This document shows, in pieces, positions 3,547 through 26,322 of a stretch of DNA of 64,000 nucleotides. The notes below the pieces were generated by a model. That model did not search any database, had not been told where the DNA came from, and was given only the letters and a program-made list of their open reading frames with translations. Within the stretch, counting starts at the first letter, position 1. Every line of letters begins with the position of its first letter. Position numbers and translations under genes: made by a program. The stretch comes from Candidatus Shapirobacteria bacterium (GTDB lineage Bacteria; Patescibacteriota; Microgenomatia; UBA12405): assembly GCA_028700625.1 (NCBI GenBank), contig JAQVSI010000001.1:7570-71569 (forward strand). The letters run 5' to 3'.

Positions 3547-3587
3547 TCGCCCTGTCAAGGGAGATGCCCGAAGGGCAGAGGGTTTTA
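3547..3587. repeat. Double-hairpin palindromic element, copy 1 (intergenic, upstream of ZIP gene): gtcgCCCTGTCAAGGGAGatgCCCGaagGGCagaGGGTTTT
   Basis: Sequence family recurring about 10 times in the window (see findings). Confidence 0.75.
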
Positions 3588-7126: not shown

Positions 7127-7746
7127 TCAGCTGTCACAACCATGTACATAAACTGGAATAAGAGGGACCGAAGATAATTCTTGCTTCAATCTTGTTTTAT
7201 AAATATGAAATATTCCAGATTGAAAAGGTAATTCTGGATTGTAATCAATATCTCCGACCACTTGTGGAAATATTAAAATAGATCTTTTATTTAGATCAAG
7301 TATTTCATTTACATCAGAAATAAAATTTCTATTTAATTTTTTCGGATTATTTCTAACTGGAATAAGGTCGTCTCCAATACTTTTATTAAAACCTTCTTTT
7401 ATTGGCAATATTATTTTTTCTTGAACATCATTCAAAATTTTATTTTTAGGATTTTTTTCATAATCAATCTGTCCTACTATTGTAATTTTTCCCCAGTCGT
7501 CTTATAAATTTGATTGAATATAAATAAATGGTCTGGTCTTGTCCCAGAATCATCGCCACCTTCTACTAGACTATTGTGATTTGAAAAAATAATATGTGGC
7601 TTATCGATAATCTCTTTAAGATTTTCAATTCCATAAGTTTTAACATTAAATTTTTCCACATAATCAGTTCTTAAATAACCCAAAATTGGGGCTAATGTTT
7701 TTTTACCAACAAAGTTGCTAACATTTTCTATTTTTTCACTAAACAT
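7127..7746 (-). pseudogene. Possible frameshifted 1-acyl-sn-glycerol-3-phosphate acyltransferase (PlsC-like) split into two ORFs (7477-7746 and 7127-7435)
   Basis: First ORF carries an NHxSxxE block resembling PlsC motif I (Asp replaced by Glu); second carries LIFPQ..LPFQSG..VPLIPVYVHG resembling motifs III/IV; the two ORFs are in different frames. Confidence 0.3.
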
Positions 7747-7753
7747 AATCGAA

Positions 7754-8779
7754 TTATAACCCCAGTCTCGGGTTTCGATCTAATTTTTCTTTATCTTTCA
7801 CAAATTCTTTTCTCAATGCTTTGTAATAAGCCGCAATTCCAATCATAGCTGCATTATCAGTATTAAATTGTTTTTTAACTGGCATAAAAATTGGAGTTTT
7901 AGTTTCTTTTGCTAATTTTCTTAATCTTTTTCTAAGTTCTAAATTTGCCAAAACTCCACCACTGACTAATAATGTTTTTGGCTTATAAAATTCAATCGCT
8001 TTTCTAAATTTTATTAAAAGACTATCAAACACTGCATCTTGGAAAGTTGCCGATAAGTTAGCTAAATTTTGTCCAATTTTTTCTTTTGGCCAATCTTTAA
8101 TTTGATAGTAAAAAGAAGTTTTTAATCCGGAAAACGAATAATCAAAATTCTTTTGATTTGATAATGGACGAGGCAGTTTTAAATAATTTTTATCACCTTT
8201 TTCAGCTAATCTTTCTAAAATTGGTCCACCTGGATATCCAAGCCCCATCATTTTTGCTGCTTTGTCCAAAGCCTCTCCCGCCGCATCATCCAAAGTCTCT
8301 CCAATTACTTTATATTTTCCAATTTTTTCAACTAAAACTAATTTTGTATGACCTCCAGAAACAGTCATCGCTAAAGCCGGAAATTCAATTTTTCTGTCTG
8401 GCTTTCCTTCTTTATTTTTAATTAAATTAACCAAAATATGGCCTTCCACATGGTTTACCCCGATTAATTTTTTATTATATTTAATTGCCATTTCCTTAGC
8501 TTTATTTACCCCAATTCCCAAAGCAATCGCCAATCCCGGCCCCAAAGTCACTGCAATCACATCAATATCTTCCATTTTTAAATGAGCCCTTTTCAAAGAA
8601 GTTTTTATTACTGGTTCAATTCTTTCATTATGTGCTCTCTTTGCAATATCAGGAACCACTCCACCCCATTTGGCATGTAAATCAGTTTGAGATGAAATCA
8701 CATTTGAAAGTAGTTGGTCGTTTTTCAAAACAGCCGCACAAGTATCGTCACAACTAGTTTCTATTGCTAATATTTTCAT
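7754..8779 (-). CDS. tsaD: tRNA N6-adenosine threonylcarbamoyltransferase TsaD (Kae1/Gcp family)
   Basis: MKILAIETSCDDT start, HxxGH metal site (VNHVEGH), 341 aa. Confidence 0.85.
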   Translation of the reverse strand: MKILAIETSCDDTCAAVLKNDQLLSNVISSQTDLHAKWGGVVPDIAKRAHNERIEPVIKTSLKRAHLKMEDIDVIAVTLGPGLAIALGIGVNKAKEMAIKYNKKLIGVNHVEGHILVNLIKNKEGKPDRKIEFPALAMTVSGGHTKLVLVEKIGKYKVIGETLDDAAGEALDKAAKMMGLGYPGGPILERLAEKGDKNYLKLPRPLSNQKNFDYSFSGLKTSFYYQIKDWPKEKIGQNLANLSATFQDAVFDSLLIKFRKAIEFYKPKTLLVSGGVLANLELRKRLRKLAKETKTPIFMPVKKQFNTDNAAMIGIAAYYKALRKEFVKDKEKLDRNPRLGL

Positions 8780-8799
8780 TATTAATGTATTATAAATGT

Positions 8800-9489
8800 A
8801 TGGAATCGAAAAATACTAAATATCTCGTATTAACCATAGTCTTGCTGATTTTATCAGTCTTTGGAATTTTTTTGATATTCAAGATTAATAATTCTCCAGT
8901 TTCTACTCAAAATAAACCTGAAACCCAAGATCTAATATCTAAAATTTCAATTACCCCAACTTCTAAACCTATTGTCACTATAACTCCTATTGCCACAATT
9001 ACTGGCAAGATTGCTTCTCCTTCACCAACCAAAAAACCAACTATTACCAAAACTCCAACCGCGACTCCAACTGCCAAAATAACTCCAACCACAATTATTA
9101 CCCCCAGTCCAATTCCAACAGAATCAGTTTCTGGTCAAATAAATTATAAAAACCAAGAAGACGGTTTTTCTATAGAATATTCATCTACAAGAAAGTTCTA
9201 TCAAGACAAAGAAAGTAGCGGTAATCGCTATACTTTCTATAGCTTGTCAGGTAATTTTGCAGTTCACGTTGCCCTCAGTGGCTCTTGGGCTTGGACTAAT
9301 TCAGACAGAAATTTTAGTTCTAGTTTTATAGTTTCTGGTCAAAACACTTTTCGCTATGAAATCGCCACTCAAACCATTGTTGATCTTCAATCAAGCGATA
9401 AAAATTACACCATCCAATGTGTTCACAATGGCAAAGAATCGCTCAAAACCGAATGCGAAGCCTTCATTAAATCCTTCCAATTATTATAA
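8800..9489 (+). CDS. Hypothetical N-terminally anchored secreted protein with Pro/Thr-rich linker
   Basis: TM helix then PTxTPT repeats then Cys-containing globular domain; start moved to the second Met to avoid overlap with tsaD. Confidence 0.4.
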   Translation: MESKNTKYLVLTIVLLILSVFGIFLIFKINNSPVSTQNKPETQDLISKISITPTSKPIVTITPIATITGKIASPSPTKKPTITKTPTATPTAKITPTTIITPSPIPTESVSGQINYKNQEDGFSIEYSSTRKFYQDKESSGNRYTFYSLSGNFAVHVALSGSWAWTNSDRNFSSSFIVSGQNTFRYEIATQTIVDLQSSDKNYTIQCVHNGKESLKTECEAFIKSFQLL

Positions 9490-9536: not shown

Positions 9537-10616
9537 TTAATACCTTATTTCTCTCGTATTTTCATCCAAATATTTAAACTGAATTGTCACCATTTTATTT
9601 TCTTTTTTTAGTTTCTCAAAATTTTTCTCACCCATATTTTCCGGCCACTCAATACAAGCAATATTGTTTTTGAATAATTCAAAAAATTTTATTTCTTCCA
9701 ATTCATAATCGGCACTAATTCTATACAAATCAAAATGCAAAAACTTTTTTTGTCCCCCTTTCGTCAAAGGGGGATGTCCGAAGGACAGGGGGATTTGATA
9801 TTCATTATAAATCACAAAAGTCGGACTCGTGATTTTTTCTTTTACTCCCAATAAATGTCCTATTTTACGGCTAAAAACCGTCTTACCACATCCCAAATCC
9901 CCAGTTAGGGCAAAAATAATTGGTTTATCAATATATTTTTTTAATAAAAATTCAGCAATTTTTCCTGTCTCTTTTTCCGATTTGGAAATCAATGTTTGAC
10001 TATTAGTAGTAATTAAATCACCTCGTCTTAATATTTTTAATTCCGCTTCAGTGGCATCAATTACTGTTGATGGTTTATTTCTTGGCAATTTTCCCGCATC
10101 CACAATCAAATCAATCATCTTCTTTTTCTTATTAGAAAGTGGTCTTAAAAAACTGGCGATTGAATAATTTGGAGTTCGTCCCGATAAATTTGCTGAAGTT
10201 GCTGTTATTGGTTTTTTAAATATTTTTACTAAATCGTGAATATATTTATTGTCTGGAATTCTAATTCCCAAAGTTCCATTTTCTGCTTCTATTCCGAGAG
10301 AGACCTTATGTTTTCCATTACTGACAATTGTAAAAGGGCCGGGTAATAAATTTGTATAAATATTTTGTCCATTTTCATTAAGTTCAACGTATTCCAAGGC
10401 CATTTTTTTATTAAAAACTGCGACCGAAATTGCCTTACCTGTCCATCTATTTTTAAAAGACAATAGTTTTTCTGTCGCTTTTTGGTTAGTTGGATCTACT
10501 GCCAAAATATAAACCGTATCACTTGGAAACACTACCAATCCACCATTTTTTAAAATCCTTGCGGTTTCTGATATAACTTTTTGATAATTATTTTCCTTAA
10601 TCTCCACTATTTTCAT
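9537..10616 (-). CDS. tsaC-tsaE: Fused L-threonylcarbamoyladenylate synthase (TsaC/Sua5/YrdC domain) - TsaE (YjeE P-loop ATPase) bifunctional t6A protein
   Basis: N-terminal half: VFPSDTVYIL, TSANLSGRTP (YrdC signature). C-terminal half: GDLGCGKTVF P-loop, SPTFVIYNEY, HFDLYRI (TsaE signature). Contains an in-frame repeat insertion. Confidence 0.7.
   Translation of the reverse strand: MKIVEIKENNYQKVISETARILKNGGLVVFPSDTVYILAVDPTNQKATEKLLSFKNRWTGKAISVAVFNKKMALEYVELNENGQNIYTNLLPGPFTIVSNGKHKVSLGIEAENGTLGIRIPDNKYIHDLVKIFKKPITATSANLSGRTPNYSIASFLRPLSNKKKKMIDLIVDAGKLPRNKPSTVIDATEAELKILRRGDLITTNSQTLISKSEKETGKIAEFLLKKYIDKPIIFALTGDLGCGKTVFSRKIGHLLGVKEKITSPTFVIYNEYQIPLSFGHPPLTKGGQKKFLHFDLYRISADYELEEIKFFELFKNNIACIEWPENMGEKNFEKLKKENKMVTIQFKYLDENTREIRY
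9753..9796. repeat. Palindromic element, copy 2, located in frame inside the tsaE domain (encodes ..SFGHPPLTKGGQKK.. on the minus strand)
   Basis: tccCCCTTTCGTCAAAGGGGGatgtCCGaaggaCAGGGGGATTT matches the repeat family. Confidence 0.7.
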
Positions 10617-10659
10617 GACACTATTTTATCACCTAAATACAACTTCTCCCTTTTAAAAT

Positions 10660-10708
10660 CCTCCCTGTTAAGGGAGGAAAAAAAGGTTCTTTAGGGAAGG
10701 TAGGTTTT
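10660..10708. repeat. Palindromic element, degenerate copy 3 (intergenic, upstream of valS)
   Basis: CCTCCCTGTTAAGGGAGG hairpin followed by a second hairpin region and GGTTTT. Confidence 0.5.
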
Positions 10709-15790: not shown

Positions 15791-15797
15791 TTTTAGG

Positions 15798-15871
15798 TGG
15801 GTATGCATGGACTCGAACCATGGACCCCCGACTTATAAGATCGGTGCTCTAACCAACTGAGCTACATACCC
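15798..15871 (-). tRNA. tRNA-Ile (anticodon UAU), cloverleaf folded by hand; CCA not encoded
   Basis: Reverse complement GGGTATGTAGCTCAGTTGGTTAGAGCACCGATCTTATAAGTCGGGGGTCCATGGTTCGAGTCCATGCATACCC: 7-bp acceptor, D-arm, anticodon loop CTTATAA, T-loop TTCGAGT. Confidence 0.7.
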
Positions 15872-15875
15872 TAAG

Positions 15876-15949
15876 TAGCAGGAGTGGGACTCGAACCCAC
15901 GACCTCAGCGTTATGAATGCTGTGCTCTAACCGGCTGAGCTACCCTGCC
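15876..15949 (-). tRNA. tRNA with anticodon CAU (Met elongator or lysidine Ile2)
   Basis: Reverse complement GGCAGGGTAGCTCAGCCGGTTAGAGCACAGCATTCATAACGCTGAGGTCGTGGGTTCGAGTCCCACTCCTGCT; anticodon loop TTCATAA; G-U pairs at the acceptor ends. Confidence 0.65.
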
Positions 15950-15985
15950 AAAGTATATGAATTATACCAAAATTTATAAAGATTT

Positions 15986-16035
15986 CTCCCTTTCATCAAA
16001 GAGAGATGCCCCGCAACAGCGGGGAGAGGGATTTA
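15986..16035. repeat. Palindromic element, copy 4 (between tRNAs): TCTCCCTTTCATCAAAGAGAGATGCCCCGCAACAGCGGGGAGAGGGATTT
   Basis: Repeat family member. Confidence 0.65.
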
Positions 16036-16083
16036 AGACAAAAAACAAAAAAGCCGCCTAATTAAAGACAGCCCCTTTGTTTG

Positions 16084-16153
16084 TTGCGGGGCTAGGAGTT
16101 GAACCTAGCCTGTGAGATTATGAGCCTCACGTGCAGCCGTACACTACCCCGCA
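16084..16153 (-). tRNA. tRNA with anticodon CAU (70 nt, short D-arm, 4-nt variable loop; fMet or Met/Ile2)
   Basis: Reverse complement TGCGGGGTAGTGTACGGCTGCACGTGAGGCTCATAATCTCACAGGCTAGGTTCAACTCCTAGCCCCGCAA; perfect 7-bp acceptor, anticodon loop CTCATAA. Confidence 0.5.
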
Positions 16154-26247: not shown

Positions 26248-26322
26248 TCGCCCTTAGCTCAACGGTAGAGCAATCCGCTGTTAACGGAAAGGTTTTTGGT
26301 TCGAATCCAGAAGGGCGAGCCA
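26248..26322 (+). tRNA. tRNA-Asn (anticodon GUU), CCA encoded
   Basis: TCGCCCTTAGCTCAACGGTAGAGCAATCCGCTGTTAACGGAAAGGTTTTTGGTTCGAATCCAGAAGGGCGAGCCA; anticodon loop CTGTTAA; discriminator G. Confidence 0.8.

Follow-up and report, generated by a model that had tools for sequence, protein, structure and literature searches.

We identified, in a 64,000-nt stretch of DNA from Candidatus Shapirobacteria (contig JAQVSI010000001.1; hereafter the window), a gene that encodes two components of the N6-threonylcarbamoyladenosine (t6A) pathway of tRNA modification as one polypeptide. The gene, tsaCE, joins the L-threonylcarbamoyl-AMP (TC-AMP) synthase TsaC with the P-loop ATPase TsaE. We propose that TsaCE is a bifunctional t6A enzyme, which would bring TC-AMP synthesis to the transferase subunit TsaD at each docking of its TsaE domain, a reading that we hold at roughly 60%. 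The hand-over of TC-AMP would then be coupled to the TsaE cycle, as suggested by the anatomy of the protein, its conservation and its operon structure.

The window is AT-rich, with a G + C content of ~31%. In Pfam, the tsaCE product matched Sua5_yciO_yrdC (PF01300) at amino acids (aa) 21–199 (E = 6.5e-42, 143.5 bits, cut-off 25.1) and TsaE (PF02367) at aa 212–356 (E = 7.3e-29, 100.7 bits, cut-off 26.6), both passing the curated cut-offs. The NCBIfam equivalogs were TIGR00057 for TC-AMP synthase (152.2 bits, cut-off 123.2, aa 8–202) and TIGR00150 for TsaE (79.5 bits, cut-off 60.1). The junction between the two halves had neither a stop codon nor a change of frame. The initial annotation, made from the letters of the window, had described TsaC and TsaE as a single 359-aa polypeptide and had asked for a search with these two Pfam profiles. 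Both profile libraries bore this out, and the C-terminal half, whose failure to match TsaE would have spoken against the fusion, scored above the cut-offs of PF02367 and TIGR00150. TsaCE was 100% identical to a protein encoded in a metagenome-assembled genome (MAG) of Candidatus Shapirobacteria, from the Patescibacteria/Microgenomates group. Public databases name the TsaCE proteins only “L-threonylcarbamoyladenylate synthase”. A promoter and terminator scan around the genes gave only background levels.

Table 1 Coordinates of tsaCE, its parts and neighbouring features in the window.
Feature	Position	Strand	Basis or remark
tsaCE, TsaC-TsaE fusion, 359 aa	9537..10616	(-)	ATG-to-stop open reading frame (ORF), Pfam, NCBIfam
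TsaC/YrdC domain, TC-AMP synthase, aa ~8–202	10011..10595	(-)	TIGR00057, motifs, fold
Interdomain linker, aa ~203–211	9984..10010	(-)	dip in model confidence, lowest conservation
TsaE/YjeE P-loop ATPase domain, aa ~212–357	9546..9983	(-)	PF02367, TIGR00150, motifs, fold
In-frame 18-aa insert QIPLSFGHPPLTKGGQKK in TsaE surface loop	9744..9797	(-)	absent from solved TsaE structures and short homologues
Intergenic palindromic repeat copy TCCTCCCTGTTAAGGGAGGA	10659..10678	.	43 nt upstream of the tsaCE start
Membrane-anchored ~240-aa protein gene, between tsaCE and tsaD	8764..9489	(+)	without Pfam match
tsaD, t6A transferase subunit	7754..8779	(-)	TIGR03723, 384.7 bits

The TsaC half carried the catalytic tetrad KxR...SxN (K55-N-R57 and S141-A-N143), the defining motif of TsaC (PMC9654439), together with P-S/T-D-T-V-Y-G, LPGP, T-A-T-S141-A-N143 and PSTV. 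The tetrad aligned with the same motifs in MTH1692 and TsaC2. All of the TsaC motifs were invariant in 20 close TsaCE homologues and mostly kept in 30 distant fusions (33–66% identity). In the distant fusions the K and N of the tetrad were kept in at least 90%, with the Arg displaced by one residue in some. The best PDB sequence matches of this half were MTH1692 (1.9e-25) and Thermotoga maritima TsaC2 (1.6e-23), with the paralogue YciO at ~1e-15; judged by these matches, it is nearer to the true TC-AMP synthases than to YciO. A Foldseek search with an AlphaFold2 (AF2) model placed the N-terminal domain, with its YrdC-type alpha/beta twisted-sheet fold, on Escherichia coli YrdC (1hru, TM-score 0.82, root-mean-square deviation (rmsd) 2.8 Å), and also on 1k7j and 2mx1. 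The TsaC half is predicted to make TC-AMP from threonine, bicarbonate and ATP.

The TsaE half had the Walker A motif G239-DLGCGK-T246 (nt 9879–9902), the switch I motif S264-P-T-F, H294-F-D296-L-Y-R and E323-W324; the Walker and switch motifs of TsaE have been defined previously (PMC6009658, PMC6614819, PMC9654439). These motifs were invariant in the 20 close homologues and aligned residue by residue with HI0065 (1htw). Across 30 fusions with 33–66% identity, G242, G244, K245, T246, S264, H294, D296, E323 and W324 did not vary. By Foldseek, the C-terminal domain resembled HI0065/YjeE (1htw, TM-score 0.70, rmsd 2.8 Å), as well as 6s84_E, 5np9 and 6n9a_E, the last of which is TsaE in the TsaB2D2E2 complex of T. 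maritima. The TsaE half is predicted to bind TsaB-TsaD in an ATP-dependent manner, with its ATPase stimulated by the complex.

The AF2 model, built on a 30-sequence alignment, had a mean predicted local distance difference test (pLDDT) score of 91 and a predicted TM-score (pTM) of 0.61. The confidence was low at the linker (aa ~200–210, pLDDT ~73) and at aa ~281–290. The spacing from PSTV to Walker A had a median of 61 aa, and was 55–69 aa in 84% of 97 fusions. By this measure the linker is constrained in length though its sequence varies, and forms a tether of roughly 10–15 residues. The ratio of nonsynonymous to synonymous substitutions (dN/dS), calculated against Shapirobacteria orthologues with dS near saturation, was about 0.04–0.15 in both halves, indicating that purifying selection acts on TsaC and TsaE alike.

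Both Pfam domains were present in all 120 homologues listed (67–100% identity) from NCBI, JGI, ENA and Logan assemblies. We searched 1.84 billion cluster representatives (50%-identity clusters) exhaustively and obtained 189 with E < 1e-30 to TsaCE. About 120 of the best 150 were full-length (at least 330 aa) and matched end to end, down to ~33% identity, and the shorter ones were mostly fragments crossing the domain junction. Longer family members (410–486 aa), considered as carriers of a third domain such as TsaB, contained inserts, and Pfam detected no domain in them beyond these two. The phyletic survey called for by the initial annotation was run on one genome per GTDB species. It detected the single-ORF fusion in 50 species representatives of Microgenomates-type lineages of the Candidate Phyla Radiation (CPR), labelled as Shapiro-, Roizman-, Beckwith-, Woese- or Dojkabacteria, or with generic labels, and including the closed Beckwithbacteria genome CP011210.1. 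Several labels of binchicken MAGs (“Gammaproteobacteria”, “Saccharibacteria”) seem untrustworthy. In the same scan, the matches in other CPR groups, archaea and ordinary bacteria were confined to residues ~1–200, which correspond to a stand-alone TsaC. Stand-alone tsaC or tsaE genes were not found within ±10 kb of the fusion loci. In principle, an error of sequencing, assembly or annotation could have merged two neighbouring genes into an artefactual fusion, for which nothing speaks beyond the general error rate of metagenome assemblies. Because the same uninterrupted architecture, with no stop or frame change at the junction, recurred in hundreds of independent assemblies and in 50 species, one of them with a closed genome, it is not a one-off error, and we ruled out an artefact as having practically no probability.

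The tsaD gene lay 757 nt downstream of tsaCE on the same strand, in agreement with the distance of ~750 bp first estimated. Among the 50 species loci, tsaD was found downstream of the fusion and on the same strand in 43. The reading frames of tsaCE and tsaD abutted or overlapped in 25 loci, and the gap was <100 nt in two more. This gene order indicates that the ancestral unit is a tsaCE-tsaD operon.

In the known pathway, TsaC makes TC-AMP, and TsaD together with TsaB transfers the threonylcarbamoyl group to A37 (PMC6614819, PMC6009658). When it has ATP bound, TsaE docks where TsaB and TsaD meet, in front of the TsaD active site, and keeps tRNA out (PMC6009658). Multiple turnover depends on the hydrolysis of ATP by TsaE, and TsaD with docked TsaE had a TC-AMP mimic bound (PMC6614819). 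In the proposal of Missoury et al., TsaE makes TsaD ready to take up TC-AMP from TsaC, and the four proteins form a transient complex, which was visible in gel shifts and never isolated (PMC6009658). Transient contacts have also been suggested to hold TsaC/Sua5 near TsaD/Kae1/Qri7, overcoming the diffusion-limited delivery of TC-AMP (PMC10484737). We infer that the TsaCE fusion is a covalent version of the proposal of Missoury et al.

In the mechanism that we propose, the N-terminal TsaC domain would make the labile TC-AMP from its three substrates, and the C-terminal TsaE domain would act as an ATPase switch, docking at the opening of the TsaD active site. Since TsaC is tethered to TsaE by only ~10–15 flexible residues, every docking event would deliver the TC-AMP synthase to a place beside TsaD. 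With TsaE still on the tRNA site, TC-AMP would be loaded into TsaD. Hydrolysis of ATP would next release TsaCE as a whole, after which an ANN-decoding tRNA would take its place on the loaded TsaD and get the threonylcarbamoyl group on its A37. A TsaB partner encoded elsewhere would complete the complex.

Several points weigh against this coupling. The AF2 model (pTM 0.61) predicted no fixed interdomain interface or channel. The linker had a mean pairwise identity of 18%, the lowest in the protein, versus 42% and 34% for the domains, and such a poorly conserved linker fits a passive tether equally well. A TobZ-like docking of TsaC on TsaD would place TsaC opposite TsaE (PMC6009658), and a tether of this length may be too short to reach that face of the same TsaD, unless TsaC uses an entrance on the TsaE side or a second protomer. 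The tsaD gene was not adjacent to the fusion in three to four genomes, among them CP011210.1. Finally, the mechanism assumes TsaB, and two TsaB hidden Markov models (HMMs), built from 5 and 99 sequences, found no TsaB in the window, in additional flanking sequence of related contigs or in the ±10 kb around each of the 50 fusion loci.

The main rival is a passive fusion, which we consider possible but rather unlikely. Its two domains would act as separate proteins, and the gain would lie only in co-expression, a 1:1 stoichiometry and saved regulatory sequence in a compact genome, with no channelling. The flexible, variable linker and the missing interface in the model favor it, as do the very compact CPR genomes, in which neighbors such as tsaCE and tsaD routinely overlap, and the known fusions of t6A genes to unrelated partners (yjeE::alr, TsaC/HemK). 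However, the same domain order and a tight spacer length were kept down to 33% identity, and both activities converge on the same TsaD active site. TC-AMP is also unstable, so proximity should matter. The substrate channelling or simplified t6A complex suggested by the initial annotation is a reasonable reading that is supported in part: the operon with tsaD, the short tether and the intact motifs fit a coupling and match the hypothesis in PMC6009658, but the model offers no fixed interface for it and the linker is poorly conserved.

A second rival builds on the likeness to Sua5/TsaC2, in which an N-terminal YrdC/TsaC domain likewise precedes a similarly sized C-terminal alpha/beta domain. The TsaE-like domain could have taken over a SUA5-type intramolecular regulation of the TsaC site and no longer act on TsaD. 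It occupies the position of SUA5 in the sequence, and Foldseek aligned the whole model with Sua5/TsaC2 chains. These superpositions had an rmsd of 15–17 Å, which shows that the arrangement is not shared. The C-terminal domain of TsaCE is a TsaE P-loop ATPase, and a SUA5 domain was not found in TsaCE with Pfam (no PF03481-type match) or NCBIfam. Moreover, the motifs contacting TsaD and ATP (Walker A, SPTF, HxD, EW) were invariant, and a stand-alone tsaE was not found near tsaD. We regard this takeover as highly improbable.

With respect to TsaB, its absence from the window, already noted initially, was confirmed: PF00814 matched one of the 65 ORFs of at least 100 aa, namely TsaD, phmmer with TsaD found no second relative in the window, and both TsaB HMMs came back empty. 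As controls, the HMMs recovered TsaB in two genomes with E ~1e-43 or better, and cross-matched ~50 TsaDs. The gene between tsaCE and tsaD was rejected as a cryptic tsaB, being a conserved membrane-anchored protein that is not TsaB-like. The region downstream of tsaD was rejected too, as it holds a split PlsC-like gene and its TsaD match (E = 0.035) is noise. We also scanned metagenome contigs for an AT-rich tsaB using the codon-biased pattern GPG[ST][FYW]TG[LIV]R. All 120 matches were true TsaB, and a Microgenomates-like tsaB contig was not found among them. One candidate, locus L158, belonged to an ordinary low-GC bacterium with the gene order tsaE-tsaB-rimI. In 55% of 118 metagenome tsaB loci, tsaE adjoined tsaB. 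If present in the fusion organisms, tsaB is unlinked from tsaCE-tsaD.

These results raise the alternative of a minimal system, in which Microgenomates-type CPR would make t6A with TsaCE and TsaD alone. TsaD would be a Qri7-like homodimer that docks the TsaE domain, and TsaC-TsaE would load TC-AMP and reset TsaD. Besides the empty searches with positive HMM controls, and their contrast with the frequent tsaE-tsaB linkage in the sampled loci, this alternative draws on the strong reduction of CPR genomes and on the mitochondrial Qri7, which works without partners (PMC6009658). On the other side, the inspection covered ~20 kb per genome, and many bacteria carry tsaB without linkage to tsaE and tsaD (SyntTax survey). 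TsaB is said to accompany TsaD in all bacterial genomes (PMC9654439). TsaE binds the TsaB-TsaD interface in all solved complexes (PMC6009658), and the TsaE domain is fully conserved here. We therefore consider a system without TsaB improbable and keep a TsaB-dependent complex as the default, with high confidence. If the alternative were true, no simpler t6A machine would be known from bacteria, and for the first time a bacterial lineage would have been shown to do without TsaB while retaining TsaE.

Compared with the canonical TsaC plus TsaB/TsaD/TsaE systems (YrdC/YeaZ/YgjD/YjeE in E. coli; TsaC2/B/D/E in T. maritima), the window has the same enzyme families and motifs, a TsaD and tRNAs with U36-A37-A38. 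It differs in that TsaC and TsaE are joined by the short tether and that tsaB was not found near the other genes (±10 kb). TobZ, HypF and the pandoravirus TsaN (TsaD-TsaC-SUA5-TcdA) also covalently link a YrdC-type module to a carbamoyl-transfer component, and the TobZ and HypF fusions create a channel for the unstable adenylate (PMC10484737, PMC6009658). In contrast, TsaCE fuses TsaC to the ATPase switch and not to the transferase, TsaD being a separate gene. Any hand-over would therefore cross a subunit interface, in step with the TsaE ATPase.

The archaeal Kae1-Bud32 proteins (MJ1130, HVO_1895) likewise fuse a nucleotide-hydrolysing “molecular switch” of the t6A machine, which has been taken as evidence of functional linkage (PMC9654439). 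There, Bud32 is joined to the transferase Kae1, whereas in TsaCE the switch is joined to the TC-AMP synthase. Bud32 has no relationship to TsaE, and the two bind the transferase on different faces (PMC6009658). Other fusions of t6A genes are yeaZ::rimI::ygjD, yjeE::alr and hydrolase::yeaZ, which were used for Rosetta-stone inference in the SyntTax survey, and a TsaC/HemK fusion given for Mycoplasma genitalium in a table footnote, but none of them joins TsaC with TsaE. According to the SyntTax paper, a direct contact of YrdC with the YgjD complex had not been reported.

The product of the opposite-strand gene between tsaCE and tsaD has a membrane anchor at its N terminus, then a Thr/Pro-rich linker, and finally a conserved C-terminal domain with the pattern …SGNRYTF…W.WT…IVD.Q…KNYTIQCVHNG…EC..F..SF. 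The gene was kept at the same position in the Shapirobacteria loci (L001–L015) and was absent from the other lineages, in which tsaCE and tsaD abut. It is an insertion into the tsaCE-tsaD unit in the Shapirobacteria clade of the window, and unrelated to the pathway. Outside Shapirobacteria, the gap between tsaCE and tsaD, where present, held a HIT-family gene or unrelated ORFs. A Dehalococcoidia locus (L067) had the ordinary layout, in which tsaE, tsaB, tsaD and tsaC follow each other as separate genes.

The region downstream of tsaD was variable among loci. In the window, a PlsC-type acyltransferase reading (…IIFSNHNS…, …ILIFPQ…) at 7127–7746 (-) was split over the ORFs 7477–7746 and 7127–7435; the split may reflect a pseudogene with a frameshift, an error in sequencing or a site of recoding. 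The TsaD proteins of six loci (L006, L007, L008, L054, L057 and L058) had an insert of ~20–55 aa at a single position, after about residue 66, which broke their match to the TsaD of the window into two or three pieces. These may be further loop inserts like those in tsaCE.

The in-frame insert in the TsaE domain holds a G + C-rich palindrome at 9753–9774. The 54-nt insert folds at -20.4 kcal/mol, and its pLDDT in the AF2 model was 61. The palindrome belongs to a family of small, G + C-rich, palindromic repeats, usually ~20–22 nt long, with the core CCCTT(T)-GAC(A/G)-(A)AAGGG. Besides the intergenic copy upstream of tsaCE, weaker cores were found in the window near 3550, 11486, 17504, 18819 and 40033. 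In L003 and L006 the tsaCE orthologue held two copies in frame, at loop sites different from that in the window, which yielded recurrent peptides, for example PLTKGRN, SPFDKGD and PSLTRGE. The core was strongly enriched in some Shapirobacteria loci (13 observed versus 0.3 expected in the 21 kb of L006, 8 versus 0.2 in L003, 7 versus 1.1 in the window) and absent from others. Palindromic elements of Rickettsia also insert in frame into genes; the repeats of the window are reminiscent of them, but much shorter.

Four tRNA genes were detected in the window, at 15796–16153 (-) and 26248–26322 (+). They are a tRNA-Ile(UAU), two tRNA-Met and a tRNA-Asn, all reading ANN codons, and all four have the t6A determinant U36-A37-A38. 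The tRNA-Met at 16083–16153 (71 nt) had a lower score (49 bits) and a short D-arm region. A genomic tRNA-Ile(UAU) is unusual in bacteria, in which AUA is normally read by a lysidine-modified CAU tRNA.

The GC skew was negative in nearly every 2-kb bin, apparently independent of gene orientation, and the cumulative skew dropped steadily over the 64 kb. The same one-strand G/C disparity has been reported for closed Microgenomates (UBA1400) genomes (PMC7143001). A ~335-aa protein in L003 (4613–5617) and L015 (17162–18235) was 63–65% identical to a protein of L158 (1556–2578), the ordinary low-GC bacterium, but only 48% identical to another Microgenomates copy, in L010. It is probably a class Ib aminoacyl-tRNA synthetase (TrpRS/TyrRS type), given a similar-sized PF00579 gene in L001, and the identities hint at a horizontal transfer of this synthetase-like gene.

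Full-text literature searches, under current and old names, found neither a fusion of TsaC with TsaE (YrdC with YjeE) nor an account of t6A genes in CPR; the sole text match for “TsaE-TsaC” was an engineered operon. The parts and the pathway are known, and the architecture, its wide conservation in Microgenomates-type CPR and the operon with tsaD seem not to have been described so far in the searchable literature. As the databases name TsaCE only as TC-AMP synthase, name-based pathway surveys would miss its TsaE, and wrongly score the fusion genomes as being without it.

The fusion is not very surprising in kind, yet it bears directly on a mechanistic question. The route of the very unstable TC-AMP from TsaC to TsaD and the actual role of TsaE are still open in a tRNA-modification pathway that is universal and, for the most part, essential. 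A conserved TsaC-TsaE protein in an operon with tsaD is Rosetta-stone evidence for a joint action of the two on TsaD. The interest of the finding would rise considerably if closed genomes prove to be without tsaB. TsaCE is a natural tethered construct for trapping the four-protein complex and for measuring channelling.

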